Source: Gammaproteobacteria bacterium (GTDB taxonomy: Bacteria; Pseudomonadota; Gammaproteobacteria; Eutrophobiales; Eutrophobiaceae). From it: 64,000 nt of DNA. The notes beneath the pieces are model-generated. The model searched no databases and was not told the DNA's origin. It saw nothing but the letters and a program-made list of their open reading frames with translations. This document shows positions 1,538-45,342 of this stretch, one piece after another. Position numbers and translations under genes: made by a program. The stretch lies in assembly GCA_965243205.1 (NCBI GenBank), contig CBDEUK010000001.1, forward strand, positions 171,385 to 235,384, given 5' to 3'. Positions within the stretch are counted from its first letter, which is position 1; every line of letters begins with the position of its first letter.

Positions 1538-1993
1538 TTACTCAGCTTCAGAATCTGATTCTGCAGGTGTTTCTTCTGCAACATCAGCAGGTGCTTCTTC
1601 TTCAGTTGTAGCTTCAGCAACAGACTCACTAGGTGCTTTTGCAGCCGGTACATCATCATTGCTATCTGATTCTTCATTGGATTTCATCAAAGGCGATTGC
1701 TCAGTAACTGCATCCTCTTGTTGAATGATTAAGTTACGAATCACTGCATCGTTGAAACGAAATGCGCTGGTTAATTGATCGAGAGTTTCTTGATCACATT
1801 CGATATTCATCAAGACATAATGTGCCTTATGAACTTTGTTTATAGGATATGCTAGAAGGCGTCTGCCCCAGTCTTCGAAACGGTGAATTGAACCACCATT
1901 GTCTTGAATCATAGTACGGTAACGATCGACCATACCACTCACTTGCTCGCTCTGATCCGGATGAACCAGAAACACGATTTCATAATGTCGCAT
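1538..1993 (-). CDS. rpsF: 30S ribosomal protein S6 with acidic C-terminal tail
   Basis: [18 protein letters not shown]...AHYVLMNIE..., a typical S6 sequence with an E/D-rich tail. It lies directly upstream of rpsR; no priB intervenes. Confidence 0.95.
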
Positions 1994-2124
1994 TGTTAAG
2001 TCCTCATGGTTTAATAGCTACCCAGTTGCGGGCTGGTGCAGCAAGGAAATTAGGTGGGCGATGATAAAGTAAGCGTCAACGACTTGCAATAGCTAATAAA
2101 GTTATTAATTTCAATCACTTAAAA

Positions 2125-3432
2125 TCATTTTGGCAGTAGATTCCCTGGGTTTTTGGTGATTTTTTGTACAGCATCGGTTAATTGCTGTAATTCGGAGTCA
2201 TTGATCACAAATGGCGGCATTAAATACACTAATTTTCCGAACGGACGCACCCAAACCTCAGACTCCACAAACTTCAGTACAATCTTAGTCATATCGACTG
2301 GGCGAATCATTTCAACTACACCAATAGCGCCAAGTACTCTGACTTCTTTTACTGTTTCATAATCCCTGCAAACAGCTAATGATTCAGTAAAATGTTTTTC
2401 AATACGTTGAACATTCGCTTGCCAATCACTGCTTTCCAAAAGTTTAATACTCGTTAATGCGGTTCTACAGGCTAACGGATTTGCCATAAACGTTGGTCCA
2501 TGCATGAAAACACCTGGCTCAGAATTACTTATGGTTTCAGCAATATCTGTTGTGGTTAACGTTGCAGCTAAACTGATATATCCACCCGTTAATGATTTGC
2601 CTATACACATAATGTCAGCACAGATGTTGGCATATTCAGATGCGAATAACTTTCCAGTACGACCAAAACCCGTAGCGATTTCATCAAGTATTAACAATAC
2701 ATTATATTCATCACATAATTTTCTAAGTTCCATTAAATATTGAGGCGAGTAGAACCACATACCACCTGCTCCTTGAACTATCGGTTCAATGATGACAGCA
2801 GCAAGTTCTGCATGATATTTCTGAAGCGTTTGTTTAATTTCTTGAAGATGCGTTTGTTCGCATTCTTCATCGAATCGTGGTTTTGGAGCATCAACAAAAT
2901 ATTGTTCAGGTAATATATGATTGAACAAGGTATGCATACCTGTGATCGGATCACATACTGACATCGCACCCAAAGTATCACCATGATAACCTTGTTTAAA
3001 ACTAACAAAACGTTGTTTATTAGCTTGCCCCTTGGCTTGCCAAAATTGAATCGCCATCTTTAATGCAACTTCAACTGATACTGAACCAGAATCTGAAAAG
3101 AAAACCGTTTTTAATTTCTCAGGCGTAATATTAACCAGTTTTTTTGCCAGTTCAGCCGCAGGTTCATGCGTTAAACCACCAAACATCACATGTGATAACG
3201 AGTCAATTTGTTGTTTCATCGCTGCTGTTATAACTGGATGGTTATAACCATGAATCACACACCACCAAGATGCCATACCATCAACTAACTCTTGTCCTGT
3301 AGAAAGTTTTATCTTTGAGCCATTAGCAGATTCAACAGGAAACAATGGTGCTTGACTGGTAAAACTACTGTATGGATGCCAAATAAATTGTTGATCATTT
3401 AAATACCAATCAGGATTTTGTAAATTAACCAT
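2125..3432 (-). CDS. bioA: Adenosylmethionine-8-amino-7-oxononanoate aminotransferase (class III PLP aminotransferase)
   Basis: 435 aa with WHPY..., YHGDT and ...LILDEIATGFGRTGKLFA...CIGKSLTGG motifs, which closely match E. coli BioA. Confidence 0.85.
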   Translation of the reverse strand: MVNLQNPDWYLNDQQFIWHPYSSFTSQAPLFPVESANGSKIKLSTGQELVDGMASWWCVIHGYNHPVITAAMKQQIDSLSHVMFGGLTHEPAAELAKKLVNITPEKLKTVFFSDSGSVSVEVALKMAIQFWQAKGQANKQRFVSFKQGYHGDTLGAMSVCDPITGMHTLFNHILPEQYFVDAPKPRFDEECEQTHLQEIKQTLQKYHAELAAVIIEPIVQGAGGMWFYSPQYLMELRKLCDEYNVLLILDEIATGFGRTGKLFASEYANICADIMCIGKSLTGGYISLAATLTTTDIAETISNSEPGVFMHGPTFMANPLACRTALTSIKLLESSDWQANVQRIEKHFTESLAVCRDYETVKEVRVLGAIGVVEMIRPVDMTKIVLKFVESEVWVRPFGKLVYLMPPFVINDSELQQLTDAVQKITKNPGNLLPK

Positions 3433-4196: not shown

Positions 4197-6365
4197 TTAT
4201 TCTTGAACTAATTCAAAATCAATTTTTTTATCGTCGAGATTAACTCGAGTCACAATAACTTTTAAACGTTGACCTAATTGAAAAACATAATTGCTTCGCT
4301 CTCCACGTAAGCGATGTCCTGTCGCTTCATAATGATAATAATCGGCGGGCATTAAAGCAGTCACATGCACTAATCCTTCTATATAAATATCATCAAGTTC
4401 TACAAATAATCCAAATGACGTGACTGAACTAATCGTACCCATGAATTCTTCGCCGACATGATCATGTATATATTTACACTTATACCATTGAATCACTTCA
4501 CGAGAAGCATCTTCAGCTCTGCGCTCAGTTTCAGAACAATGATTAGCCATCTCTTGTACTTTATCTTGTTCATACATAAATTCTTCTGGTATATTTCCAT
4601 CAATTAAATGTTTTAACGCTCTGTGCACCATTAAATCAGGGTAACGACGGATTGGTGAAGTAAAATGAGTGTATGCATCAAAGGCTAAACCAAAGTGACC
4701 TTTATTATTTGCTTCATAAACTGCTAAAGGCATACTTCGTAGTAAGACCATATTAATAAGATGATAATCTTCGCGGCCACTTATCTGTTCCATTAAAGTA
4801 GCGTAATCTTTAGCCGAAGGGTTTTCTCCTCCTTGTAATGACAAACCTAGCTCTGATAAAAAAGAACGAAGGTCAGCCAATCGTTCTTCTTTAGGTACTT
4901 CATGCACACGAAACATAGAAGCACATTGCTGTTCAATCAAATGATTTGCTGCGGCCACATTGGCTGTCAACATAAATTCTTCTATTAAACGATGTGCATC
5001 ATTTCGTTGATAGGTATTGATTTCTTGAATTTGATCATTATCACCAAACTTAAAACTAGGTTCATTAGTATCAAAATCCAATAGACCATTTTTCTTGCGT
5101 CTTTCATGTAATAGTTGATACAAAGAATATAAATTTTGAATTAGAGCTAATTCATTCTTTAATTCAGAAACAACTGTTTCATCATTATTTATTACTGCTG
5201 CGACTTTGGTATAAGTTAATCTTGCAACAGACGTCATAACACCTTGATAGAATTCTTTACGTTTTACTTCGCCATTTTTATCGATGCTTAATTCACATAC
5301 CATACATAGTCGATTCACATGTGGATTCAATGAACAAAGACCATTGGACAAAACTTCTGGTAACATCGGTATAACACGCTGCGGGAAATAAACTGAGGTA
5401 CCACGGTTATAAGCTTCCTTATCCAATTCAGTATCGGATATCACATAACTGGAAACATCAGCGATCGCAACAATTAAGCGCCATCCTTGTCCTTGAGGCT
5501 CACAAAAAACTGCATCATCAAAATCTCTAGCATCTTCTCCATCAATAGTAACCAAGGATATATCTCGTATATCTTTATGATTAGGAAACTGTGAAATATC
5601 GACTTCTTCTTTCAAGCTAGAAATTTCATCTAATACCTTCTCAGGCCATTCATGAGGTAAGTTATGATTATGAATAGCAATATCTATCGCCATTCCAGGG
5701 TCGGTTGCATTTCCTAATATTTGAGTAATTTCGCCAATGGGCTGTGAATGTTTATCGGGCTGTTCAGTGATTGAAGCAACAACAACATCTCCAGTTTTTG
5801 CATTATTTTTTTTATCATTGGGGATAATAATATCTTGATGAATACGCTTGTTCTCAGGAATCAAAAAACCAATTGGTCCTTGTGTTTTAAAACGTCCTAC
5901 AACTTGATGGTTGGCACGTTCTAATACTTCAACAATCGTTGCTTCTTCACGTCCACGATGATCAACACCAGAAATTCGAGCTAATATTCTATCTCCATGT
6001 AATACCTTTCGCATTTGCTTAGGCGATAAAAACAAATCATTTCCACCTTGTTCTAATGCCATAAAGCCGTAGCCATCGGGATGCGCGATAATTTTTCCTT
6101 TTAATAAATCAACTTTATCGACAGGCGCATACCCTTCTTTGCGGTTACGAATAATTTGACCATCTCGCTCCATAGCGCGAAGCCGTCGACGCAAAGCTTT
6201 TCGAGATTCGGTATGATCTTCTTTCATTAACGCTGCTGCGATCACTCGAATACCACAAGGTTGTCCCTGTTTTTCTAAAAGCTCAAGGATTTCTTGTCGC
6301 TCTGGAATTATGAATTCGTATTCAGTCGACTGATCAATATTATTTTTTTTACTACGATTTGACAT
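4197..6365 (-). CDS. rnr: Ribonuclease R (RNB domain plus C-terminal S1 domain)
   Basis: 722 aa; RNB catalytic region (...HFGLAFDAYTHFTSPIRRYPDLMVHR...) and a C-terminal S1-like segment. Confidence 0.9.
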   Translation of the reverse strand: MSNRSKKNNIDQSTEYEFIIPERQEILELLEKQGQPCGIRVIAAALMKEDHTESRKALRRRLRAMERDGQIIRNRKEGYAPVDKVDLLKGKIIAHPDGYGFMALEQGGNDLFLSPKQMRKVLHGDRILARISGVDHRGREEATIVEVLERANHQVVGRFKTQGPIGFLIPENKRIHQDIIIPNDKKNNAKTGDVVVASITEQPDKHSQPIGEITQILGNATDPGMAIDIAIHNHNLPHEWPEKVLDEISSLKEEVDISQFPNHKDIRDISLVTIDGEDARDFDDAVFCEPQGQGWRLIVAIADVSSYVISDTELDKEAYNRGTSVYFPQRVIPMLPEVLSNGLCSLNPHVNRLCMVCELSIDKNGEVKRKEFYQGVMTSVARLTYTKVAAVINNDETVVSELKNELALIQNLYSLYQLLHERRKKNGLLDFDTNEPSFKFGDNDQIQEINTYQRNDAHRLIEEFMLTANVAAANHLIEQQCASMFRVHEVPKEERLADLRSFLSELGLSLQGGENPSAKDYATLMEQISGREDYHLINMVLLRSMPLAVYEANNKGHFGLAFDAYTHFTSPIRRYPDLMVHRALKHLIDGNIPEEFMYEQDKVQEMANHCSETERRAEDASREVIQWYKCKYIHDHVGEEFMGTISSVTSFGLFVELDDIYIEGLVHVTALMPADYYHYEATGHRLRGERSNYVFQLGQRLKVIVTRVNLDDKKIDFELVQE

Positions 6366-6467
6366 GTCATGACTATCAACTTAAAAGTCGACAGTATACA
6401 TGCTAAAGCTGAATAATTGATACAAACAAATATGTCGTTGAAAAAGCGTCAGATAAGATATTCTAAA

Positions 6468-6491
6468 TAGAATCGCATCCTTACGATTCTA
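6468..6491 (-). terminator. Hairpin TAGAATCG-catcctta-CGATTCTA downstream of the four-gene accessory operon
   Basis: Perfect 8-bp inverted repeat 21 nt past the stop of the 6512..7162 gene on the minus strand, with a short U-rich tract after it. Confidence 0.4.
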
Positions 6492-6511
6492 TCTAATTAC
6501 TAAATCAATAT

Positions 6512-7162
6512 TTATGAAATGTGTTTATTTTTTCTAAAACCAAAAACCGTAGCCAGTGGTGCAAGCATTAAGTAAACAGCAGCAGGTACTGGGACTGCAT
6601 TAGGATCGGGCGCACCTGTCAATTGAAAATCAATTGAAAAAATATCTGTGCCACCCGTTTCATTAAACCAGAATAAATATTCGCCAGCTGTTAGCTGAGT
6701 GATAGGCAAACTAAATCCTGCATTATTTGTGGCATCATCTGATTCAAATAAATCTGTACCAGCATCCTCTTCACCAAACAATAACCCAGTCAACAACAAA
6801 CTTGGATCTAATGGGAAACTATTAGCTCCGAGCGAATTAACATCAAAAGTTGTAGCATCTAATATCCCAAAGAAACCAGGTCCCGCACCTTGAAGACTCG
6901 TAAAATTGATTAATTGAACAGTATCTAATGTTTCACCTTCTTCAATTGTTACTTGAAATACATCTGGTCCTAAAAGGCTTGTATCAGTGAAAAAACTTAA
7001 GTTATTTGAACCTGCTTCAAAGTCGACTTGTAAAGGATTTCTAAAATCACCCGTTTGAGCAATCCCATCTACAACAATAAAAGCACTCACACTTTGAGCA
7101 CTCAATAGAATAATAAAACCTAATACTATTTTATTTATATAATTATTTATATTTTTCATCAT
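6512..7162 (-). CDS. Secreted protein with PEP-CTERM-like (VPLPA/IPTL-type) C-terminal sorting signal, paralogue B
   Basis: Has an N-terminal signal peptide. The C-terminus reads ...PNAVPVPAAVYLMLAPLATVFGFRKNKHIS: a Pro-rich motif, a ~17-aa hydrophobic helix and a basic tail. It is a clear paralogue of the upstream gene (shared DFEAGSN / EGETL.TV.L.N blocks). Confidence 0.7.
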   Translation of the reverse strand: MMKNINNYINKIVLGFIILLSAQSVSAFIVVDGIAQTGDFRNPLQVDFEAGSNNLSFFTDTSLLGPDVFQVTIEEGETLDTVQLINFTSLQGAGPGFFGILDATTFDVNSLGANSFPLDPSLLLTGLLFGEEDAGTDLFESDDATNNAGFSLPITQLTAGEYLFWFNETGGTDIFSIDFQLTGAPDPNAVPVPAAVYLMLAPLATVFGFRKNKHIS

Positions 7163-7183
7163 GCTATTCCTAAAATAATTCTA

Positions 7184-7879
7184 TTAACTTGTGCTTTTCT
7201 TTGAACGCAACACAAACCCCAGAGGTCCTAATAAAAGCAACACAGAGGCAGGTATTGGTGTAGCAACAACATTTTCAGCGTCGATTAGGAACTCAAGTTC
7301 ATAAGTAAATTCGCCTGATGTCTCACTTAACCAAACCCAGTAACTACCTGGACCAAGTATTCCACTAAAACCTGAAATAAATTCTAGTGCAGCACCTTCT
7401 TCATCTTGAGAAGTACGGCTTGCTAAATCAAGAAGATTAAAATGTGGACCTTGTATAGGACCAAGGTCATTTTGTGTAAACAAAGATGCATTAAACAACT
7501 CAGTATTTTCATCACCAGGATCAAGACCTGCTATGTTATTTGATAGCCTAGGTGCATTAGTAAAATCACCAATCCCAAAAAATCCCGATGGAGTTGCAAA
7601 ATCGAATGTAAATGGCGAATAATTTAATAGATTAACCGCAGTTAAAGTTTCACCTTCTCTTAAAGTGAAAGAGAAAAAATCTCCACCACCAAAAGTAAAA
7701 TTATCAACCAAGCCGCTCACGCTATTAGAACCAGCATCAAATTGTATTGTAGATATCGATGTTGGATCATTTGATAGAGGACCATCTAAAGTTTCATCAT
7801 AAACTAATGCATGTGAACTAAAACTTGTAAATATCCCTATTAAGGCTATCGAAAATTTATTTAAGTACTTCATCATCAT
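7184..7879 (-). CDS. Secreted protein with PEP-CTERM-like C-terminal sorting signal, paralogue A
   Basis: Signal peptide, then a C-terminus ...VVATPIPASVLLLLGPLGFVLRSKKSTS. It is homologous to 6512..7162. Confidence 0.7.
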   Translation of the reverse strand: MMMKYLNKFSIALIGIFTSFSSHALVYDETLDGPLSNDPTSISTIQFDAGSNSVSGLVDNFTFGGGDFFSFTLREGETLTAVNLLNYSPFTFDFATPSGFFGIGDFTNAPRLSNNIAGLDPGDENTELFNASLFTQNDLGPIQGPHFNLLDLASRTSQDEEGAALEFISGFSGILGPGSYWVWLSETSGEFTYELEFLIDAENVVATPIPASVLLLLGPLGFVLRSKKSTS

Positions 7880-7909
7880 TCTCCTAAAAAGAGAGTTTTA
7901 TATAAATAT

Positions 7910-9349
7910 TTAAGAAATAAATCCAAATGGTAAAGACTGGCCTGGGCTCCAAAAATTACCCAAGTTAGGTAAAATGTATTGCATCTCTGTACTATTTGGA
8001 TCAATGCCAAACCATTGAGCGATTTCTAAATAATATTGATCAACCGAAGATGTTGGCACTACGCGACCTCGACCAATATCAAGTGGGTTACCGGTATTTA
8101 AAGACACAGGGTAATCACCATAGACTCGACCACCATTGATTACACCAGGTCCAAGCAATAACATATTGCCACCCCAAGCATGGTCAGTACCAGAACCATT
8201 AAATGTTAATGTTCGTGCAAAATCAGATGCCATAAATAATAAAACTTTACCTTCAGCACCAATTTCATAAATTGCATCATTAACGGCTTTTAGAACATCA
8301 TTAATTTTTTGAATTTGAGGGGGATGGTTTTGATTAAAATTACCATGATGATCCCAATTACCCTCTTGAACAAAAAAGATTTGGCGAGTTTGTCCTAAAG
8401 CTTCTTGAACAGAAATCGTTTTCATAATTTGTTCCATTTCTCGCCCTAAATTATTCTCAGGAAACTGAGTATTAAAATTAATATCTTCAGTATTAGCGTT
8501 ATATTCAAGAGCCCCATTAACAGCATTGAATTTTTTATTTGCAAAAGTATCTGCTAATAAATTGGCATATGTCGCATTCGTTAAGCTGTCATGAGAACGA
8601 GTTAATATGCGATCCATTGTGCTACCACCACCATATCCGTTTAATACATCGGCACCACTGTATTCATTAAGAACGTATTGAAAAGTAGACTGGCCACTTA
8701 GCATAGTTCTCTCGCCGTCTAATGAGTAACAGATTGACAAAGCAGGGTTAGAATTAAATGAATCATTTAATAAATCAGAACAACGACCTGCCCAACCAGT
8801 TAAACCACTGCGAGTTTGAGGTACAGCTGTTTGCCAAGCGCGTTGATGATCAGAATGCGAAAATAAACCAACTGGAAAAGTAACGTCAGAATTCCTGAAG
8901 CGATCTCTATATTGTTGGGCAGTGATCGGCTCAACTAAGGTTCCAACATTTGCAACACATGCCAAATTGCCGTTGTTATACATATCACGACAATCTGTCA
9001 TATTTGGGTGAAACGCGAATTGCCTACCTGAATTTGGATCGGTAATAGCTGTACTAATTAATTCATTGCGAGAATAGGCTACAGCGGTTCTAACGGCTTG
9101 ATAATCTGCATGCTCACTGTTTTCATATGGCATGAGCATGTTATAAGAATCATTACCACCGTTTAAAAACAAGCAAATCATTGCCTTGTAATCTGATTGT
9201 GGTACAGCTGCTGCCGCTGCTTGTGTCATTGTCAAAGACAACATTTGAGACAGCGCCGATGTTGATGCCATTGCAGAACAACCGCCAGTATATTTTAAAA
9301 AGTTTCGACGTGATGAATTAAACTTTGAATGTTTACGTTGTTTACTCAT
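7910..9349 (-). CDS. DUF1501 family protein (sulfatase/phosphatase-like fold) with twin-arginine signal
   Basis: Tat motif SRRNFLKYTGG near the N-terminus. The C-terminal block DFARTLTFNGSGTDHAWGGNMLLLGPGVINGGRVYGDYP matches the DUF1501 consensus (EFGRTP...GRDHhp...GGG..GG.vyG.TD). It is paired with DUF1800 upstream. Confidence 0.8.
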   Translation of the reverse strand: MSKQRKHSKFNSSRRNFLKYTGGCSAMASTSALSQMLSLTMTQAAAAAVPQSDYKAMICLFLNGGNDSYNMLMPYENSEHADYQAVRTAVAYSRNELISTAITDPNSGRQFAFHPNMTDCRDMYNNGNLACVANVGTLVEPITAQQYRDRFRNSDVTFPVGLFSHSDHQRAWQTAVPQTRSGLTGWAGRCSDLLNDSFNSNPALSICYSLDGERTMLSGQSTFQYVLNEYSGADVLNGYGGGSTMDRILTRSHDSLTNATYANLLADTFANKKFNAVNGALEYNANTEDINFNTQFPENNLGREMEQIMKTISVQEALGQTRQIFFVQEGNWDHHGNFNQNHPPQIQKINDVLKAVNDAIYEIGAEGKVLLFMASDFARTLTFNGSGTDHAWGGNMLLLGPGVINGGRVYGDYPVSLNTGNPLDIGRGRVVPTSSVDQYYLEIAQWFGIDPNSTEMQYILPNLGNFWSPGQSLPFGFIS

Positions 9350-9388
9350 AATAAATTCCTCTATTTGCTATCGTTCTTAAATTAACAA

Positions 9389-11257
9389 TTAACGAACGAC
9401 ACATTCAGGTGCTTCGACTAGTGACATAATCGTGCCTTCGGTAATATCTTTTGCACGTGTACTTGCATTTCTCGCCTCTTGACGAGTAATACCATAGAGC
9501 TCTCTTAAAAAGCTAAAGTTGACATTACCGCCACAGAGATAAACATTCAGCTTGTCAAAAAATGCTCTAGTACCTCCCGTGGATAATAAGTTTTGCCAAT
9601 AATCAAAATGCACCAACACATCTAATTCGCGTCGAGGTTCATTTTCTAATCGATAATACACACCCTCATCATCGGCTTCTCGAATGTAGTGACGATAGGT
9701 ATCTGCAGTATCAACAATTGAAGTGGTATCTATAATTTCAAATTCAGGAGACACAAGCGTTGAATTAACAACGTCCGCTGGATCAGGTGTGTAATTCGAT
9801 ACAGCACCTGGTGCTTGGTAATCAGGCTTATAAAAGTTGAACACACTCGGAGAACGATGAGCGCCTTGTTCAAAATCACTTGATAAATCAGGTAATGCCA
9901 AACGACCTAGAGTATAATTTGAAGTTGCCTCAAACAACCTTAAGAAGGCAGTAAAGCGCATAATAGGCTCAATAACTTTAGTACGTTCCGTACCACCATT
10001 AAATATTTCTACACCAATGACACGTTGGTTACGACTATTTCGTCTTACTCGATAATCATAATTATTTAAATTATGATCAGATAGTAGAATTGTTTTTATT
10101 ACTTCACCTAAATCACCTGAAGTATTAACAAATACAGTTGCGACTTCTTGTACATAAGCAGGTGAAGGATTAGACATTGTAAAACGTTGAATTAAACGGC
10201 GTGAAATAAAAGGCGCTGTATTTGGATGTGTGCTTAAAATATTTAACACAGCATCGAGATCTTGTTGCGCATTTTGACCGGCAGGTAAGATAGTACCATT
10301 GGTTAAATCGGTTAAATCCTTTTCATCTGTATCATGCCAAAAAGTATCAAAAACCATTGGTAAGGAGAACACCGGCTCGTCATCAAAGAAGTTGCGAGTT
10401 GCATAATGCCAACCTGTAAATACTCTGGCCATTGTTCGAATGGTATTATTATCATAAGTATCGATTAAATTACCATTGCCATCGACTCTAAACGTTCCAT
10501 CGATATTTAGCTCATGTAATCCTATTGAAAATAACTGCATGATCTCACGTGCATAGTTTTCATCTGGAAATAAATTATCTTGTGGAATCGGCTTAGGATT
10601 ATTTGCATGACTTAAGAAACGCCCCATAACTGGATGCATGCTTACTTGACGTAGAAGATCTCGATAATTTCCAAAAGCATTACTTGTCATCAAATCATAG
10701 TAATAAGTCGAACCAAGAAATAATGGTTGCCCATTATTATCTTGATCAGAACGATGTAGATAAAAATCATCATCATTCACGACAAAAATCTGAGATAGCG
10801 CCCATGCCATACGCTGACGTAATTGATCCTGTGATGTTAAACTGGAATGCCACCAAGCGTGATAACGATATTCATCGATACCATATACATTAACATTATC
10901 TTGGTTAAAGTAATCAATGCCATCATCAGTCATCATTTGTCGTTCAAGCATATTATGCAAGGTCACTGGTAGAGTCATTTGATTATCAACCCATTCAGTT
11001 AATGCAGCTCTGTGACCAATGGCAAGAATTCGCTGAGCTAAAGCTTCGGTTTCAGCAATCGTTGGTCCAAAAGTAGTTTGTGATAAAAACTGGCTGGCTT
11101 GAGCTTCAGCAATTACTTGCTGATAATTTGTATCGTTCGCCGCTAATGCGCCACTGCGCGTAGGTGTCGCCGCAAACGAGAATTGACTAGAAAAAACAAG
11201 AAGAATAGAAATCCAGAACTTATGTATCTGGCCACAGTGCAACTTCTTCATGGTCAA
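9389..11257 (-). CDS. DUF1800 family protein (secreted), partner of DUF1501
   Basis: 622 aa with a signal peptide. It lies immediately upstream of DUF1501 on the same strand (40-nt gap), which is the hallmark DUF1800/DUF1501 gene pair. Confidence 0.65.
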   Translation of the reverse strand: MTMKKLHCGQIHKFWISILLVFSSQFSFAATPTRSGALAANDTNYQQVIAEAQASQFLSQTTFGPTIAETEALAQRILAIGHRAALTEWVDNQMTLPVTLHNMLERQMMTDDGIDYFNQDNVNVYGIDEYRYHAWWHSSLTSQDQLRQRMAWALSQIFVVNDDDFYLHRSDQDNNGQPLFLGSTYYYDLMTSNAFGNYRDLLRQVSMHPVMGRFLSHANNPKPIPQDNLFPDENYAREIMQLFSIGLHELNIDGTFRVDGNGNLIDTYDNNTIRTMARVFTGWHYATRNFFDDEPVFSLPMVFDTFWHDTDEKDLTDLTNGTILPAGQNAQQDLDAVLNILSTHPNTAPFISRRLIQRFTMSNPSPAYVQEVATVFVNTSGDLGEVIKTILLSDHNLNNYDYRVRRNSRNQRVIGVEIFNGGTERTKVIEPIMRFTAFLRLFEATSNYTLGRLALPDLSSDFEQGAHRSPSVFNFYKPDYQAPGAVSNYTPDPADVVNSTLVSPEFEIIDTTSIVDTADTYRHYIREADDEGVYYRLENEPRRELDVLVHFDYWQNLLSTGGTRAFFDKLNVYLCGGNVNFSFLRELYGITRQEARNASTRAKDITEGTIMSLVEAPECVVR

Positions 11258-11509
11258 GTATCTCCAAACTATTAATACGAGTATTTATCCTTGATTTAGA
11301 ATTAGTTTGTAGTTATTTAATTTCAATTTAGTACTACATCCATAACAAGGTAACGGGATTGTTGCACTAAAACTAAAGGCTAACTATGAAATGGTTCACA
11401 TACGATTAGTGAAATTAGGCAAACTTGTTCACAAAAAAAATGCGGAAGCCCTAAATTGTGAACTAGTTATCATTTAAGAAAGGGATATTAAAATAATAAA
11501 TAAAAGTAT

Positions 11510-12820
<1,311 letters not shown>

Positions 12821-29044: not shown

Positions 29045-32000
29045 TTATCGTTTAACTAATTTACGAATTAATATATAGAAAACAGGAGTCAGTAATAATC
29101 CAAATATCGTTACACCAATCATGCCGGAGAACACTGCAATCCCCATAGTATTACGCATTTCAGCACCAGCACCCGTTGAAATAGCCATTGGCAAGACACC
29201 CATAATAAACGCTATGGATGTCATTAAAATAGGACGTAATCGTAGCTGACTCGCTTCTACAGCAGCTTCAACAATGCCCCGACCTTTTTGTTCTAATTCG
29301 CGGGCAAACTCTACAATTAAAATAGCATTCTTCGTTGCCAAACCAGCTAATACAAACAAACTGATTTGTGTAAAGATATTAATATTGCCCGGTGTTAACC
29401 ACACGCCTAGCATTGATACTAAACCGATAACCATCCCTTGATTAGTAAGCCAAACACCAACTAATGCAGACAATGTACTCATCGGTACAATTAAAATAAT
29501 AGCTAAAGGTAAGGTTAAACTTTCATATTGCGCCGCTAAAACTAAAAAGACTAAGAAGATACATAAAGGAAAAATATAGATCGCACTATTACCCGCAAGA
29601 ATTTGTTGATACGTTAATTCAGTCCATTCGTAATCCATACCGGGCGGTAAGGTTTCTTCCAATATTTTTACAATCGCTGCTTGAGCTTGACCACTTGAAT
29701 AACCTGGCGCAGGCGAGCCATTCAGATCTGCAGCCCTATAGCCATTATAACGTTGAGCATTTTCAGGCCCATAACTTTCATACACTTTCAACACAGCTCC
29801 TAGTGGAACCATTTCACCGTTATTATTTGCAACTTTAAGTTTTGTAATATCTTCAGGTTTTGATCGAAACTGTTTATCGGCTTGAGCAATGACTCTATAA
29901 GTTCTACCAAATTGATTAAAATCATTGATGTATAAAGATCCCAAATAAACTTGCATGGTAGAAAAAATATCATTGATATTTAAACCTAATTGCTTCGCGC
30001 GCACTCGATCTAAATCAGCATACAACTGAGGAACATTGATTTTAAAACTGGAAAATACTGACGTAAGTTCAGGTGTTTGATAGGCTTTACCCATTACTTG
30101 ACCAAGTACGGCATTCAAAGCCTCATAACCTTGATCAGTTCGATCTTCGATCTGTAATTTAAAACCACCTACTGTACCTAAACCTAATACTGCTGGCGGT
30201 GGAAACACAGCAACGAACGCATCATCGATCTGCATAAACTTTTGTTGCAACTTACCCGCTATTGCAAACCCTGATAACGATGGATCCGTACGCTCATGAA
30301 AATCTGTTAATGGAAAAAACACTGTGCCTGCGCTAGAACTATTAATAAAACCAGCAATTGACAAACCAGGGAAACCCACGGCATTTCGTATCCCAGGTTC
30401 TTCCATCGCGATCTCAGAAATTTCTCGAACTACCGATTCGGTTCGTTCCAAGGTCGCGCCATCTGGTAGTTGTGTAAAACCAATAAGATATTGTTTATCC
30501 TGCATTGGAATAAAACCAGCAGGTATTGATGTAAATAACTGATACGTTACAAACATCAACGAACAGTAGATCAATATGGCAACAAATTTATGATGAACAA
30601 TATGTTTAACAATAAATGAATAAACGGCTGCGCAACCTTTATATACCCAGTTAAATATTTTAAAGAACCATCCTATTAATGCATTCATTAAAATAGTTAA
30701 CCAATCGTTGGTTTCTTCCTTAGGTCGTAATAGCAATCTTGAAAGCGCTGGACTCAATGTTAAAGAGTTAATAGAAGAAATAACAGTAGAGATGGCAATC
30801 GTTAATGCGAATTGTCGATAGAACTGGCCTGTTAAACCGCTAATAAAAGCAATCGGAACAAACACAGCAACTAATACTAATGTTGTTGCAATAATAGGCC
30901 CTGTGACTTCACGCATGGCTTGAAAACTAGCATCACGTGGTGATAAACCATCACTGATATTTCTTTGCACATTCTCAACGACAATAATGGCATCATCAAC
31001 AACGATACCAATCGCAAGGATTAAACCAAACAAAGATAAAACATTAATGGAAAAACCCATTAATAACATGATAGAAAATGTCCCAACGATTGAAACAGGT
31101 ACAGCCATTAATGGAATAATCGAAGCACGCCAGGTTTGTAAAAATACAATCACCACGAGTACAACCAAACCTACTGCTTCTAATAAAGTATGGACAACCG
31201 ACTCAATCGATTCTTTAACAAATACTGTAGGGTCATAAACAATGCTGTAATCAATGCCTTCTGGAAAATTTTGTTTTAATTCCTCCATACGTTTTCGAAC
31301 GTCATGAGAAATTTGTAAGGCATTCGCATCGGAAGATTTAAAGATAGGAATCGCAACCGCATTTTGATTATCAAGCAAAGAACGCAATGCATATTCAGAT
31401 GCACCCATCTCTATTCGAGCTACGTCTTTTAATTGGGTAATTTCACCATTGTCACCCGCTTTAATAATAATCTCTTCAAATTCTTCTGGTGATTCAAAAC
31501 GCCCTTTAATGTTAATCGGCAATTGCGTTTCGATTTGCGCATCGTATGGAGGGCCACCTATCACACCAGCAGATGCTGATATATTTTGTTCTTGTACTGA
31601 TTGAATGATTTGGTTGGCTGTTAAACCGAGTTCAGCAATCTTTTCAGGGTTCAACCAAACCCGCATGGCATAATCACCCGCACCAAATAATAAAACCTCA
31701 CCAATACCTTCAATACGTGCTAATTCGTCTTTAACATTTAACACACCGTAATTGCGCAGGTATAACATGTCATAACGATCATTCGGTGATTTTAAATGCA
31801 CAACCATAGTTAAATCAGAAGAACTCTTAACTGTGGTAACACCTAATTGCCTTGTGATATCAGGTAAACGTGGAGCTGCTTGTTCAACTCGGTTACGAAC
31901 TAATGTAAGCGCTAAATTCGGATCCGTGCCAATTTCAAATGTGACCGTAATCGTTGTTAAGCCATCGGCTGTTGATTGCGATGACATATACAACATGTTT

Positions 32001-39153: not shown

Positions 39154-41241
39154 TTAGAAATCGATTCTAAGAGACAATCTACCATTAATCGGCTCACCAG
39201 TACTAATGTTGTCATCATTATGTGATGCAGGGAAATATTCTTCATCAAATAAGTTTTCAATATTTAATTGTAATCTAATGTTATCAGTCACTGTGTAATA
39301 TGCCGCGGCATCTACTCTAGTAAACGATGGTAAGACTGTATCATTATCAATTTCAGTAAATTGCTCATCTTGATAAATCAAACCTAAACCTAAACCAAAG
39401 CTACTAGTAAAATCATAACGGTTCCAAATAGAGAACATATTTTGAGGTACTTCTCTTAAGGTACGATTCTGCTCAACGCCACCAATCAATCGACCATTTT
39501 CTTTAGCATCTAAATAACTATAACCCGCATTGATTTGCCATTGTGGTGTTACTTGCCCAACTAATTGCAATTCCAAACCTTCGATTTGGCTACTGATACG
39601 TATGTTACTGGTAGCATCGCTTGGATCGACAGTTGTATCATTATCAAGATTCAAACGAAAAATGGATGATGTAAAACTTAACGCATTTAAAATATCCCAC
39701 TTAACACCAAACTCATAATTTTCAAATACCTGAGGCGCCAAGTTAGCATTAGTCGTACTTAAAGTAAGAAATTGTTCGCCAGAACGTGGTAAAAATGATT
39801 CACTGTAACTAGCATAGATAGAAACATCTTCTTGTGGTTTAAAAATAAATCCTAGTCGCGGTGACAACTTTTTATCAATTCGACCTATTTCCAAATTTGC
39901 AGCAATATCATTTACATTTAGATCAAATTGATCATAGCGCGCACCTGCAATGATTTGAAAATAATCAGTAACGGTTATTTGATCTTGAATATATAAAGAA
40001 GCAACTGTGAGATCTGAGTCTCTGTTACGATTTACATTTGGAAAACTAAACCCAGGAATACTTAATGGATCTGAGAATATAAAAGTTGAAGTTGCAGCAC
40101 CACCACCAAAATCAACGTTATTTCGTGCATTTTGTGTTTCTTGATCAGCATATTCAAAACCATATAACAATTGATGTTTCATGCCAGCAGTTTCAACATT
40201 TGAAAGAAAGTTTATTTGGGCAATAAAATTTTCTCTTTCTGTAGTATCTCTATAACCACTTAACTCAACTTGATTATTTGCAAAGTCAAAAGGATTATTA
40301 GCAAAAAGATTTTGATATATCTTATCAAAATCAGAATATTGAATCGTTGCATTTACTTGATGATTTTCATTGAAATCATGAAATATACGACCTCTTAGAA
40401 TGTGCGCTTCTAAAGTAGTGTAATTCGCACTTGGTGAACCAAAAAATGTCTCATAAAAACCTGGGGCAGGTTCGCCATTAAAAGAAGGAATACCACGGTC
40501 GACTACTCTATCATCGTCTATATATTCATATGAAAATTGAGCACGGGTATTTTTACCTAATTTGGCAGCAATAGTCGGGTTAAACGCATAACGCTCTCCA
40601 TCAAAAAAATCACGATGATTTTCAAAACCTTCTGCTAACATGTTCACACGAATTGCGGCGTTATCACTAATATAAGTATTACCATCTGCGGTAAATTGAT
40701 AAGCACCGAAAGTATCACCTGTTGAATTAATGCTAGCAAAACGGTCATTCAATATAGGTGTTTTAGTAACACGATTGATATTACCTGCACCACTACCACG
40801 ACCAAAGATCATTGCGTTAGGGCCTTTGTGAACTTCGACACGATCAAGGTTATATAATGGACGAAAATACTGAACATCATCACGGACACCATCTACAAAG
40901 AAATCCGCTGTACTACGTAGGCCGCGGATAACGATAGCATCGCGATGGCCTTCACCTTGGCTGATACTAAGGCCAGGTGTGTAACGAGTGATGTCAGAAA
41001 TATCTTGAATCGCTTGGTCTTGAATTTGTTCTTCGGTAATCACTGATACACTTTGAGGTGTATCAAGCAACGGCACATCTGTTTTAAGACCAGCACTTTT
41101 AACAGTCTGATACCCTTGTTTCTCACCTGTAACAATAATTTCATCAGCTTGTATCACCGCTTCTTCGGCGAGTACATTAGTAGTTGAGAATGTAACTCCC
41201 GCAGTAAGAGTGATAATTAATATATTTTGAGTTTTTTTCAT
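39154..41241 (-). CDS. TonB-dependent outer-membrane receptor (siderophore/haem type)
   Basis: Signal peptide from the internal MKKTQNIL, a plug domain, a 22-strand barrel and a C-terminal ...LSLRIDF. The longest ORF extends to 41307. Confidence 0.85.
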   Translation of the reverse strand: MKKTQNILIITLTAGVTFSTTNVLAEEAVIQADEIIVTGEKQGYQTVKSAGLKTDVPLLDTPQSVSVITEEQIQDQAIQDISDITRYTPGLSISQGEGHRDAIVIRGLRSTADFFVDGVRDDVQYFRPLYNLDRVEVHKGPNAMIFGRGSGAGNINRVTKTPILNDRFASINSTGDTFGAYQFTADGNTYISDNAAIRVNMLAEGFENHRDFFDGERYAFNPTIAAKLGKNTRAQFSYEYIDDDRVVDRGIPSFNGEPAPGFYETFFGSPSANYTTLEAHILRGRIFHDFNENHQVNATIQYSDFDKIYQNLFANNPFDFANNQVELSGYRDTTERENFIAQINFLSNVETAGMKHQLLYGFEYADQETQNARNNVDFGGGAATSTFIFSDPLSIPGFSFPNVNRNRDSDLTVASLYIQDQITVTDYFQIIAGARYDQFDLNVNDIAANLEIGRIDKKLSPRLGFIFKPQEDVSIYASYSESFLPRSGEQFLTLSTTNANLAPQVFENYEFGVKWDILNALSFTSSIFRLNLDNDTTVDPSDATSNIRISSQIEGLELQLVGQVTPQWQINAGYSYLDAKENGRLIGGVEQNRTLREVPQNMFSIWNRYDFTSSFGLGLGLIYQDEQFTEIDNDTVLPSFTRVDAAAYYTVTDNIRLQLNIENLFDEEYFPASHNDDNISTGEPINGRLSLRIDF

Positions 41242-41490
41242 TGCTTCGAATCCATCTATATTTTTATACCAATAATGGGAGCTGAAGATTATTCTAATTA
41301 AGAACAATTATCAATCAGTATTTGATTCTTATTACCAATTAGAAAAGAAGAAATTAAAATATTTTTCCTTATGTATCAATAGTTTAAAAAATTTCTCGTA
41401 ATAATTATTTTTCTTAATTTAAAAATTTCACATAAATATCGATTATTAATTACTATATAGAACTCAATACTAAAGTATGGATGACAATAC

Positions 41491-41783: not shown

Positions 41784-43559
41784 ATGGAAGGCTCAATGAG
41801 TACCTTAAGTTCTTCTATGGTTTTTCTCTCTGCTGCAGTCGTAGCAGTCCCTATTTTTAAAAAATTAAAACTGGGAGCTATTCTAGGTTACCTGGTCGCT
41901 GGCTTGGTTATCGGACCATCTGTTATGAATTGGGTGGACGACCCAGATACCATCTTGCACTTTGCTGAACTCGGTGTGGTATTGCTATTGTTTATTATTG
42001 GTTTAGAACTTGAACCCAATAAACTTTGGCGTTTGCGGAATCAAATTGTTTTAACTGGTGGTGGGCAATTACTTATTACTGCTGTAGTGATTGCACTTCT
42101 TCTGAAATATTTCTTAGCGTTTTCATATATAACATCCATCATCATAGGGTTAGCCCTTGCCTTATCATCAACCGCGTTTGCCATTCAATTGATGACAGAA
42201 CAAAACATATTACGCAGCCCTCCAGGACAAAAAGGTTTTGCCATTTTATTAATGCAAGACTTAGCAGTGATACCTATCTTATTACTCGTTGACAGCTTTG
42301 CAGTTGATGAACATGGCGCAGCGCCTGTTTGGTGGTTAAGCCTTGCTATTATTATTTCCGTATTAATAATCGGGCGGTATTTACTGAATCCTTTTTTACG
42401 TCTTATCTCACGCTACGGCAGTAATGAAATCATGACTGCCGCTGCATTATTAATCGTCATTGCAACTGCAGTCGGTATGCAAGAAGCTGAGCTATCAATG
42501 GGTATGGGGGCATTTGTTGCAGGTATACTGTTAGCCAACTCAAGTTTTCGACATCAATTAGAAACCGAAATCGAACCGTTTAAAGGTTTATTGTTAGGTT
42601 TATTTTTTATCGCGATCGGTATGCATCTCGATTTAAGTCTTCTCGTTGCAAAACCTATTTTTATTCTGAGTGCGTCCCTTATATTAGTGCTTATAAAATT
42701 ACTGATCATCTATGGCATTTTGCGTCTCAATAAGCAAACAAATATCGATTCAATTCGAATTGGTTTAATGTTGTCACAAGGCGGTGAGTTTGCTTTCGTT
42801 GTGATGAGCCACGCTGCATCAAATGGCATATTTAATATAGACCTTGCTAATGAAGTTACATTGATAGTTGGTATATCAATGGCATTAACATCGCCATTGG
42901 TTATTTTACAAAGTATTCTTTTTAGCAGTCGTAATTGTCCTCCAGTCTATGACACCAGTCGTGATACAGATGAACCTCAAATTATTATCGCTGGGTTTGG
43001 TCGCTTCGGACAAATTACTGCGAGAATTTTAAGCGCGAATCATATTCCTTTTACCGCTTTGGATAAGGATGCTGAACATATCGAATTTGTGAAAAAATTT
43101 GGCAGTAAAATCTTTTATGGTGATGCCTGTCGTTTAGACTTATTAAAAACCGCTGGGATAGAGCATGCTAAAGTGATTCTAATCAGTGTGGATAGCGATG
43201 AGGACGGTTTAAAAATCACAAAACTAGTACGTGAAAATTATCCACACATTAATATTATCGCTAGAGCACATAATCGTTTATCCGCAATGAAGTACGCTGA
43301 ATTAGGCGTCACAAACTATGTAAGAGAAGTATTTGCAGGCAGCCTTGAAGCAGCGCAAATGGTGTTACAGGAATATGGTTTTTCAGCTGCAGAAGCAGAA
43401 AATATGGCTCAGGTATTCTCTGCTCATGATTTCGCAATTCTAAATAAGGCAATTGAAGAAAAAATGGATATGCAACAATTAATTGATGTCAGTGAACAAA
43501 ACCGCAAAGAATTACAATCATTATTTACACAAGATGAAAAAGAGATTACTCAGCATTAA
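41784..43559 (+). CDS. CPA2-family monovalent cation:proton antiporter with TrkA-N (KTN) domain (KefB/KefC-like)
   Basis: 591 aa; 12-13 TM helices followed by the Rossmann motif IIIAGFGRFGQ. Confidence 0.85.
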   Translation: MEGSMSTLSSSMVFLSAAVVAVPIFKKLKLGAILGYLVAGLVIGPSVMNWVDDPDTILHFAELGVVLLLFIIGLELEPNKLWRLRNQIVLTGGGQLLITAVVIALLLKYFLAFSYITSIIIGLALALSSTAFAIQLMTEQNILRSPPGQKGFAILLMQDLAVIPILLLVDSFAVDEHGAAPVWWLSLAIIISVLIIGRYLLNPFLRLISRYGSNEIMTAAALLIVIATAVGMQEAELSMGMGAFVAGILLANSSFRHQLETEIEPFKGLLLGLFFIAIGMHLDLSLLVAKPIFILSASLILVLIKLLIIYGILRLNKQTNIDSIRIGLMLSQGGEFAFVVMSHAASNGIFNIDLANEVTLIVGISMALTSPLVILQSILFSSRNCPPVYDTSRDTDEPQIIIAGFGRFGQITARILSANHIPFTALDKDAEHIEFVKKFGSKIFYGDACRLDLLKTAGIEHAKVILISVDSDEDGLKITKLVRENYPHINIIARAHNRLSAMKYAELGVTNYVREVFAGSLEAAQMVLQEYGFSAAEAENMAQVFSAHDFAILNKAIEEKMDMQQLIDVSEQNRKELQSLFTQDEKEITQH

Positions 43560-43638
43560 ATAATGTTGATTGCTATAAATCACATATATTTGATATTGAT
43601 CATATAAATTAATAATTTAAACAATTACTATCACATAA

Positions 43639-45342
43639 ATGCATACACATCTCATTCAAGATACTGTCATTTTATTTTCATTAGCCGTTTGCGCGGTCAT
43701 TCTATTTCGACGTTTTAATCTCCCCGCTATATTAGGTTACCTATTCGTAGGTATTATTGCTGGACCTTATTTATTAGGTTGGATGCAATCTAATGAAACA
43801 ACACATTTACTGGGTGAAATCGGTGTTGTTTTTTTACTGTTTACTATTGGTCTAGAATTCTCATTTACAAAATTCCTACGCATGCGTAATGCATTATTTG
43901 GTTTAGGAGGAACTCAAGTATTAATAGGGACAATATCAGGTATGTTGATAGCAATATGGATTGGTATCAAATGGGAAGCAGCATTGATTATTGGTGGTGC
44001 TCTCGCTTTATCATCAACAGCCATTGTGCTCAAACAATTAGGCGAACAGTTAGAACTTAACAAACCTCATGGAAGAGTCGCATTAAGTATTTTATTGTTT
44101 CAAGATATAGCAGCGATCCCTTTTCTTGTCATGATCCCTGTATTTGCTTCTGATAACACTGAAAACATGAATATGCTTTTGATAATGGCATTAGGTAAAG
44201 GAGTGATTGCGTTACTGATTTTATTGGGCATAGGACGTTGGTTATTGCGACCGATATTTCATGAAGTAGCTAACTTACGTTCACAAGAATTATTTACTTT
44301 AACTGTATTGCTTATTGCTTTACTGGCTGCTTGGTTAACTTATTTAATGGGCTTATCTTTAGCACTAGGTGCTTTTATTGCTGGCATGATGCTTGGTGAA
44401 ACTGAATACAGGCATCAAATAGAAACTGAAATAAGGCCATTTCGAGATGTATTAATGGGTTTGTTTTTTATAACGGTAGGTATGCAATTAAATATATTTG
44501 CTGTTATTAATAGTTGGTATTGGGTCGGGTTATTATTAGTTGGGCTTATGTTAGGTAAAGGTATATTTATCGGTTTTCTAACTCGATTTGCAAATTACTC
44601 GAATGCAACAGCTGTAAAGTCTGGAATTGTCTTAGGTCAAGGTGGTGAATTTGGTATTGCGTTACTTAGTTTATCATTATCAACTGGCTTAATTAATCAT
44701 GAAGAAATACAACCTGTATTAGCGGCGATTATTCTATCGATGGCTTTAGCACCTTTATTTATTCGGTACAGTGAATCACTAACGAATCGTTTATTAAAGC
44801 CAAATGATAATGACGTTATCGATAATGAGGTTGAAATAGTTAATGAAGAGCGAACAAAGCATATTATTTTGTGCGGGTATGGCAGAACTGGGCAACGTAT
44901 TCAAAAAGTTTTAGAACAACAACATATTAAAACTGTTGCAATTGATAACGACTCAAAAGTTATTAATGCTACTAGAAAAAATAACCAAGAAATTTACTTC
45001 GGAGATGCTTCAGATATTCGAATTCTTGAATCGCTCGGTTTAAGCAATGCAGCGGCAGTACTAATTACATTTAATGATATAGAGCGTAGTAAAAATATCG
45101 TAACCGCTCTTAGACAAACTAATTATGAAATACCGATTATATCAAGAGCCTATAATCAGGAAGAAATGGAAATATTAATCGATGCTGGTGCTACCGAAGT
45201 AGTACCTGAGGATTTAGAAACCAGTTTGATGTTAGTGACACAACTTTTATTAATTATTGGTATGCCGCTCGATGACGTTTTGAATGAGTTGAACAATATT
45301 AAAAAAGATCATTACCATCTACTCAGTGATAGTAAAATTTAA
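43639..45342 (+). CDS. CPA2-family cation:proton antiporter with TrkA-N domain, second tandem paralogue
   Basis: 567 aa; the same architecture with motif ILCGYGRTGQ. Confidence 0.85.
   Translation: MHTHLIQDTVILFSLAVCAVILFRRFNLPAILGYLFVGIIAGPYLLGWMQSNETTHLLGEIGVVFLLFTIGLEFSFTKFLRMRNALFGLGGTQVLIGTISGMLIAIWIGIKWEAALIIGGALALSSTAIVLKQLGEQLELNKPHGRVALSILLFQDIAAIPFLVMIPVFASDNTENMNMLLIMALGKGVIALLILLGIGRWLLRPIFHEVANLRSQELFTLTVLLIALLAAWLTYLMGLSLALGAFIAGMMLGETEYRHQIETEIRPFRDVLMGLFFITVGMQLNIFAVINSWYWVGLLLVGLMLGKGIFIGFLTRFANYSNATAVKSGIVLGQGGEFGIALLSLSLSTGLINHEEIQPVLAAIILSMALAPLFIRYSESLTNRLLKPNDNDVIDNEVEIVNEERTKHIILCGYGRTGQRIQKVLEQQHIKTVAIDNDSKVINATRKNNQEIYFGDASDIRILESLGLSNAAAVLITFNDIERSKNIVTALRQTNYEIPIISRAYNQEEMEILIDAGATEVVPEDLETSLMLVTQLLLIIGMPLDDVLNELNNIKKDHYHLLSDSKI

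Follow-up and report, generated by a model that had tools for sequence, protein, structure and literature searches.

Within a 64-kb stretch of contig CBDEUK010000001.1 (the window, which here means the whole 64,000 nucleotides analysed, with a guanine-plus-cytosine (GC) content of 36% overall), four genes occupy the space between purA and rnr, and these four genes, which we refer to as the cassette, are the subject of this report. The host is an uncultured marine-type gammaproteobacterium whose nearest named relatives, judged by RNase R, are Thiotrichales and Gammaproteobacteria metagenome-assembled genomes (MAGs) at approximately 59% identity. Read along the minus strand, the order is hflK-hflC-hisZ-purA, followed by genes for a DUF1800 protein, a DUF1501 protein and two small paralogous proteins, here named A and B, and then by rnr-rlmB, a bioA-like aminotransferase gene and rpsF. 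All four co-directional open reading frames (ORFs) lie where the initial annotation had placed them, in the interval from purA to rnr, and are read from the minus strand; their operon-like packing was borne out, with intergenic gaps of 39, 30 and 21 nucleotides, each one less than the 40, 31 and 22 first given. Between purA (11510-12805) and the DUF1800 gene there is a spacer of 252 nucleotides, where no convincing match to a sigma-70 promoter was found, while rnr (4197-6365) lies 146 nucleotides downstream of the paralogue B gene and is set apart from the operon by a hairpin (Table 1). The backbone order rnr-rlmB-rpsF that had been assumed does not hold in this lineage, as a bioA-like class-III aminotransferase gene (435 amino acids, 2125-3432) sits between rlmB and rpsF here and in all relatives examined.

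Table 1. Features of the cassette and its borders (positions in the window).
Feature	Position	Strand	Remarks
DUF1800 protein, first operon gene	9389..11257	-	Pfam PF08811
DUF1501 protein, 479 amino acids	7910..9349	-	Pfam PF07394; putative metalloenzyme exported by twin-arginine translocation (Tat)
Twin-arginine motif SRRNFLK, DUF1501 residues 13-19	9293..9313	-	Read from sequence
Paralogue A, 231 amino acids	7184..7879	-	Sec signal peptide, probable PPC/collagen-binding-like beta-sandwich, C-terminal sorting-type tail
Tail of A: TPIPASVLLLLGPLGFVLRSKKSTS	7187..7261	-	Signature motif, hydrophobic helix, basic cluster; read from sequence
Paralogue B, 216 amino acids	6512..7162	-	Architecture as A; orthologues follow A in the related loci L001, L002 and L007
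Tail of B: VPVPAAVYLMLAPLATVFGFRKNKHIS	6515..6595	-	Read from sequence
Spacer, purA stop to DUF1800 start, 252 nucleotides	11258..11509	-	Presumed site of operon promoter
Hairpin, 15-bp stem	6463..6496	-	16 nucleotides past the paralogue B stop; terminator-like, weak T tail

All four products carry export signals, of the Sec type on the DUF1800 protein, A and B, and a twin-arginine motif on the DUF1501 protein. The family assignments of the first two genes, made initially from the sequence alone, were upheld by a wide margin: the DUF1800 protein matches PF08811 over residues 57-593 (4.9e-72, 243.8 bits, cutoff 26.1), and the DUF1501 protein matches PF07394 over residues 55-453 (1.2e-27, 97.5 bits, cutoff 27). 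The DUF1800 protein has 622 amino acids if read from a TTG codon and 620 if read from the ATG at 11251, and the ATG, 11 nucleotides after a GGAGA sequence, is likely to be the true start; its signal peptide reads MKKLHCGQIHKFWISILLVFSSQFSFA/ATP. Orthologues in three related loci, L002, L001 and L008, are 80%, 73% and 55% identical to it, respectively. The twin-arginine motif that had been reported on the DUF1501 protein is indeed present, and in an alignment of four orthologues R14, R15, L18 and K19 of this motif are invariant; the scores of the hidden Markov models (HMMs) for Tat signals fall below cutoff (PF10518, 17.4 versus 22.7 bits; TIGR01409, 11.8 versus 16.7 bits). The same alignment shows the motifs GGNDS[YH]N, DxH and (T/S)DHAWGG to be invariant, and the GGNDS, DxH and DHAWGG motifs would fit a metal-dependent hydrolase or transferase. 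The sulfatase-like fold that the initial annotation had named is thus a putative one, in keeping with the Pfam clan of DUF1501, the alkaline-phosphatase/sulfatase superfamily, whose members have an alpha/beta core, metal-binding Asp and His residues and a nucleophile following the first strand. No structural homologues of either DUF1501 or DUF1800 turned up when the PDB was searched by sequence and by profile.

The paralogy of A and B was confirmed by BLASTP (2e-18, 32% identity across the full length), and a residual DNA repeat between their genes can still be seen (6899-6941 and 7616-7658). Their N-terminal domain has no Pfam or NCBIfam model, family HMM matches being confined to the tails. 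A and B appear to be beta-sandwiches of the collagen-binding/PPC type. They show 12-16% sequence identity to the ColG/ColH collagen-binding and PPC domains (PDB 5iku, 1nqd, 3jqw, 5sv5), from which they differ by an insertion of approximately 60 residues (residues about 106-175), and Pfam PPC matches neither protein. Close relatives of A are few: a word-indexed search of 5.8 billion clusters found only five, a scan of genome contigs with A recovered only the MAG that contains L001, which was already known, and a metagenome scan with the small-protein alignment gave no matches. When 1.84 billion representatives were searched exhaustively with a profile, 652 proteins came up at E<=1e-3, of which 70 reached E<=1e-10; almost all are 180-240 amino acids long and laid out as A and B are. 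Some long members (P0127, with 1184 amino acids, P0131, P0132, P0135 and P0137) have the N-terminal half-domain repeated up to ten times, and the N-terminal part of about 90 residues may be an independent repeat unit.

Both proteins end in a tripartite tail, and these are the only two such tails among the ORFs of the window. A tripartite tail combined with an N-terminal signal peptide is the general architecture of exosortase signals, and A and B both have it. The initial annotation had described a shared VP[LIV]PA[AS]V motif; the tripartite layout stands for both proteins and the motif stands for B (VPVPAAV), while A lacks the leading VP (TPIPASV). Eight close relatives all retain P208, P210, A211, L215, P219 and L220. 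Among the CTERM sorting-signal domain models, VPLPA-CTERM (TIGR03370, cutoff 25.35) alone has even weak matches to A and B, with 8.1 bits for whole A, 12.3 for its tail, 13.4 for the tail of B and up to 16.6 for the tails of orthologues; the tail region of Xrt_dep_XDP1 scored 14.4 bits on the tail of B, below its cutoff. PEP-CTERM (TIGR02595 and PF07589) did not match A or B, either as whole proteins or as isolated tails, and IPTL-CTERM (TIGR04174) gave no match to the proteins or tails at E<=10. The family to which A and B belong is more informative. Among 129 members, the tail motif is PEP in 75, xP[VILAT]P[AGST] in 39 and another PxP in 6, with none or a truncated end in the remaining 9; at E<=0.01, PEP-CTERM models recognise approximately 55-60 of the members and VPLPA-CTERM recognises 17, and P0130 scores 22.9 bits on VPLPA-CTERM. 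An exosortase signal of the PEP-CTERM or VPLPA type is the near-constant ending of this wider family. We read the tails of A and B as candidate exosortase-type signals because one homologous domain bears either a PEP-CTERM or an xPxPA tail at the aligned position. The interpretation that they form a subtype beyond the curated models survives on this homology, which is the strongest argument available for it.

In order to place the cassette in other genomes, relatives were located through homologues of RNase R and through paralogue A. The locus L002 (Rnr 71% identical) has the order purA-cassette-rnr as in the window. On a 10,994-bp Logan contig there appear to be an A with 86% identity and an Rnr with at least 90% identity, so that the cassette is probably found between purA and rnr in a second relative, closer than L002. 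In L004 and L007 (Rnr 77%), A, which is cut by the contig end, and B are followed by approximately 8.8 kb of other genes and then by rnr. Encoded in this block (L004:1-9671, L007:1371-9221) are an ABC exporter with a C39 peptidase, an HlyD-type adaptor, one protein each of the sulfate-permease and OmpA families, and several products without a family. In all, two or three relatives have the cassette at the site that it occupies in the window. The cassette is not at this site in L005 (Rnr 72%), where purA and rnr enclose only a small ORF and a methyltransferase gene, or in L006 (Rnr 65%), where two PEP-CTERM proteins are followed by SnoaL-like and LysR genes. The two L006 proteins (L006:6788-8165) have unrelated N-terminal domains and score 30.1 and 25.3 bits on TIGR02595 (cutoff 16), which suggests that PEP-CTERM sorting is used by this lineage. 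The exosortase clients gathered at the purA-rnr spot thus differ from one relative to another.

Two further loci carry the genes in contexts unrelated to purA and rnr. In L001, which comes from the same sample as L005, a type II secretion system (T2SS) cluster has the whole cassette inserted between its gspF and gspE genes (L001:4884-15583, and also L089), in the opposite orientation, so that the normally contiguous gspC-F block is split. An XrtA-type exopolysaccharide locus begins about 440 nucleotides past gspC in L001, and 5 kb from the cassette there are five consecutive genes with best matches to families of the XrtA/PEP-CTERM system, namely pepcterm_export, hypo_1 (an outer-membrane protein), ChnLen, TyrKin (a tyrosine kinase) and ATPase, of which ChnLen (275 versus 278.85 bits) and ATPase (285 versus 324.5 bits) are below cutoff. 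In L008, from a genome with 55% GC, the DUF1800-DUF1501 pair and a single member of the small-protein family form a three-gene version in yet another context. The four genes have therefore stayed together in no fewer than three genomic contexts that are unrelated to one another, an observation that bears on the possibility that their adjacency is meaningless and that a hot spot between purA and rnr gathered the DUF pair and the PEP-CTERM-like pair independently. The changing cargo of the site could be taken to favour such an origin, given the methyltransferase of L005, the two PEP-CTERM proteins, SnoaL and LysR genes of L006 and the C39-ABC exporter block of L004. However, the gene order, with gaps of 21-72 nucleotides, recurs in L001 and L008, whose contexts are unrelated to purA-rnr, and wherever the neighbourhood of A/B relatives is complete (the window, L002, L001 and L008) they stand directly after DUF1501; the L007 contig begins inside A, so the genes upstream of A cannot be read there. 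We consider independent gathering to be largely refuted and very improbable.

The cassette has a GC content of 0.371, compared with 0.369 and 0.378 for its flanks, its GC at third codon positions (GC3) is within the range of its neighbours, and in each genome the GC content of the cassette tracks that of the host. No repeats flank the cassette, and tRNA genes, Rfam elements, an integrase and other mobility genes are likewise absent. Recent horizontal transfer was rejected on the basis of this native composition and the lack of tRNA genes, repeats and Rfam elements. Because the same site is occupied in relatives and the composition is native, without repeats, tRNA genes or mobility genes, the cassette is better described as an old, ameliorated resident than as a recent island. 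The initial annotation had called it a clear accessory insertion in a conserved backbone and had proposed purA-rnr synteny as a check. What this check showed is mixed, with the cassette in place in L002 and other cargo in L005 and L006: the variable site and the portable unit stand, while a recent island does not. What lies between purA and rnr thus varies, and the cassette can be regarded as portable, although in this lineage it is best seen as an old resident.

A wider survey covered 80 metagenome loci with DUF1501 proteins 36-43% identical to that of the window. DUF1800 lies directly upstream of DUF1501 in 69 of them, and 8 of the other 11 are cut by a contig end. At 33 of the 80 loci (29 distinct proteins) a third gene begins only a few bases from the DUF1501 stop codon and encodes a protein with an N-terminal F5/8-type-C (discoidin) beta-sandwich, all of one family. 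Twenty-two of these third genes end in the C-terminal domain of the type IX secretion system (T9SS; TIGR04183, 31 bits, cutoff 23), two end in a GC-type dockerin-like tail (27.4 bits versus a cutoff of 29), and the remainder are long multidomain forms. The dockerin-like tails (DVDGDG...VFGQTC; L082:7399-8052 and L088:2336-2992) represent a third kind of anchor on the discoidin domain. A carbohydrate-binding-module (CBM)-like third protein of 231 amino acids in L025 has a tail of the form VPEQS-hydrophobic-RKR that no HMM recognises. The recurring architecture predicted from these sequences is DUF1800, DUF1501 and a small exported beta-sandwich with a surface anchor typical of the lineage. A gene for an extracytoplasmic function (ECF) sigma factor directly follows DUF1501 at 14 of the 80 loci (L037, at 1986-3343, L038, L049, L053, L058, L062, L063, L065, L066, L068, L072, L076, L080 and L083), suggesting that these are a regulated variant of the module. 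After the ECF gene, where there is room, there are usually two ORFs of about 135-140 amino acids, one with weak TPR matches.

The survey also bears on an alternative in which A and B are substrates, with DUF1501, together with DUF1800, adding or removing a phospho-, sulfo- or similar group on A and B or on a moiety attached to them during maturation. Co-conservation of the four genes would be explained by such a role, as would the invariant Asp, Ser and His motifs of DUF1501, which fit a metal-dependent transferase or hydrolase, and exosortase and rhombosortase substrates are thought to gain a new C-terminal moiety (PMC11980579). However, most of the DUF1800-DUF1501 pairs examined have another third gene or none, and bacteria in which the pair lacks such neighbours are common (PMC5122149, PMC3542564). 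Protein modification is unlikely as the ancestral function because most pairs are without an A/B-type third gene. There is, in addition, no modification site common to the PPC-like and discoidin families, and we regard this alternative as quite unlikely.

The explanation that we prefer is that the operon is old and vertically ameliorated and encodes a cell-envelope or cell-surface system; in its full form, as follows, we would give it an even chance of being correct. A and B would be exported by Sec and then held in the inner membrane by the C-terminal helix, where an exosortase encoded elsewhere in the genome would cut them at the xPxPA motif. The cognate enzyme would be an exosortase of the VPLPA-specific XrtD type, or else of a new subtype, which is a possibility because the tails of A and B bear an unusual invariant Pro-Leu inside the helix. 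Once cleaved, A and B could be displayed on the cell surface or in exopolysaccharide, and such exosortase-sorted display is the part of the explanation that we consider reasonably probable. A T2SS may carry A and B, and perhaps the Tat-exported DUF1501 protein as well, across the outer membrane; we propose this step because GlyGly-CTERM and MYXO-CTERM proteins require a T2SS to reach the surface (PMC11980579), an analogy to which the gsp context of L001 can be added. On the surface, A and B might serve as ligand-binding or docking subunits for the DUF1800/DUF1501 pair, a role in docking or ligand capture that we put forward tentatively and with some doubt. The DUF1501 protein would then be a folded metal-dependent hydrolase exported by Tat, and its target would probably be a polymer, for example a glycan or another substrate bearing phospho- or sulfo-esters.

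A number of results weigh against this explanation. The tails of A and B, whether whole proteins or isolated tails were searched, fall below the threshold of all curated CTERM HMMs. No exosortase was found in the 64-kb window, where the multi-transmembrane ORFs that were scanned proved to be DUF2232, M48 peptidase, EamA, MFS or Kef-type proteins and one ORF with 12 transmembrane segments (29045-32224) was not scanned, nor did any relative locus fetched contain one. The 10 kb that follow the XrtA-type locus of L001 had none either, their genes being for epimerases, toxin-antitoxin pairs, Fic, a methyltransferase and a glycosyltransferase. In the survey the triad is common and not universal, given the ECF loci and the approximately 25 of 80 loci with no recognisable gene after DUF1501, and the small-protein family of the window occurs at none of the 80 distant loci. 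The discoidin third genes were tried as distant homologues of A and B and rejected (hhalign probability 2.3%), so the parallel between them is one of architecture and not of ancestry. A single-sequence AlphaFold2 model of DUF1501 reached a mean confidence (pLDDT) of only 34.6 and is unusable for the fold. Finally, the searchable literature assigns no function to DUF1800 or DUF1501, and likewise no activity, substrate or physical interaction.

The first two of these points are also what would be expected if the tails were plain transmembrane anchors. A and B would then be inner-membrane proteins with a periplasmic beta-sandwich, there would be no exosortase, and the whole system would be periplasmic. 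The helix, with its atypical invariant Pro-Leu in place of the Gly-rich helix of VPLPA-CTERM, fits such an anchor as well. However, P-x-P-A is invariant immediately before the helix in all close relatives and a mere anchor needs no such motif, homologues bear genuine PEP-CTERM tails at the aligned position, and this lineage has both an XrtA-type locus beside the cassette in L001 and L089 and proteins that pass the PEP-CTERM model at the purA-rnr site of L006. A plain anchor seems unlikely to us. The PEP-CTERM models do work on such material, as they detect the L006 neighbours and, at E<=0.01, approximately 55-60 of the homologues of A and B. Failure of the curated models is half of what the initial annotation had named as telling against sorting signals on A and B, and exosortase sorting is retained here through the homology of the family.

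Elsewhere in the window, two ORFs on the same strand (33500-34965; 180 and 330 amino acids) overlap by 70 nucleotides and may be one frameshifted gene. At 41784-45342 there are two genes in tandem for Kef-type Na+/H+ exchangers (591 and 567 amino acids) that have TrkA-N domains, and a gene for a TonB-dependent receptor (39154-41307) adjoins them.

Among the uncharacterised exported families of environmental bacteria, DUF1501 and DUF1800 rank with the more abundant ones, and a recurring third gene for an anchored beta-sandwich provides a first testable functional context for them, namely action at the surface on a captured ligand. Such third genes also encode small, tractable proteins for ligand screening. 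The PPC-like family of roughly 650 members, which swaps PEP and xPxPA tails, is without a Pfam or NCBIfam model, and the tail with Pro-Leu may represent a subtype of sorting signal that is overlooked in present-day annotation. A broader view, which we offer as speculative and rather unlikely to hold in full, is that DUF1800 and DUF1501 could be the enzymatic core of a widespread and unrecognised three-component surface system whose third part changes its fold (PPC-like, discoidin or CBM-like) and its anchor (exosortase tail, T9SS domain or GC-type dockerin) by lineage. The window would then show a duplicated third part with a new exosortase-signal subtype (xPxPA-LLxxPL-basic), probably with its own exosortase, and export by a T2SS.

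Several known systems resemble parts of the cassette. Like VPLPA-CTERM and PEP-CTERM proteins, A and B combine a signal peptide with a proline signature, a hydrophobic helix and an Arg/Lys cluster at the extreme C-terminus. Unlike in VPLPA-CTERM, where the spacing in the helix is Gly-rich, the helix here contains an invariant Pro-Leu (LLxxPLG/A), and the motif in the A/B family can begin with T, V or M. The GlyGly-CTERM/rhombosortase and MYXO-CTERM/myxosortase systems (PMC3237569, PMC11980579) share with the cassette a C-terminal tag and a link to a T2SS, seen here in the position between gspF and gspE in L001, whereas the A/B motif has no Gly-Gly or Cys. This link is found in one relative only, L001, and no T2SS genes were seen in the annotated part of the window. 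In the clostridial collagenases ColG and ColH the collagen-binding domains are appended to a protease, whereas the domain of A and B stands alone on a sorting tail.

The enzyme pair itself has been described in other settings. In Dickeya, Pectobacterium and Agrobacterium vitis, the DUF1800 and DUF1501 genes form an operon that was transferred along with genes for bacterial chitin synthase (PMC5122149). The window pair has the same order, DUF1800 and then DUF1501, and a twin-arginine motif on DUF1501; it differs in preceding two genes for beta-sandwich proteins with sorting tails and in having no chitin synthase or sugar epimerase nearby. Planctomycetes and Verrucomicrobia show a massive expansion of DUF1501, which the initial annotation had extended to the pair. 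The expansion is, however, one of DUF1501 with PSCyt and PSD1 proteins and not with DUF1800 (PMC3542564), and the statement has to be corrected accordingly. In the Planctomycetes-Verrucomicrobia-Chlamydiae (PVC) group the partners of DUF1501 sometimes bear F5/8-type-C or laminin-G carbohydrate-binding domains (PMC3542564). The modules of DUF1501 with PSCyt1, PSCyt2 and PSD1 thus resemble the cassette in combining a DUF1501 protein that has a Tat-type signal with a larger exported partner, and in a logic of enzyme plus lectin-like domain. They differ from it in that the partner here is DUF1800 and not a protein with cytochrome motifs, and in that the beta-sandwich is here a separate small protein with a surface anchor of its own and not a fused domain.

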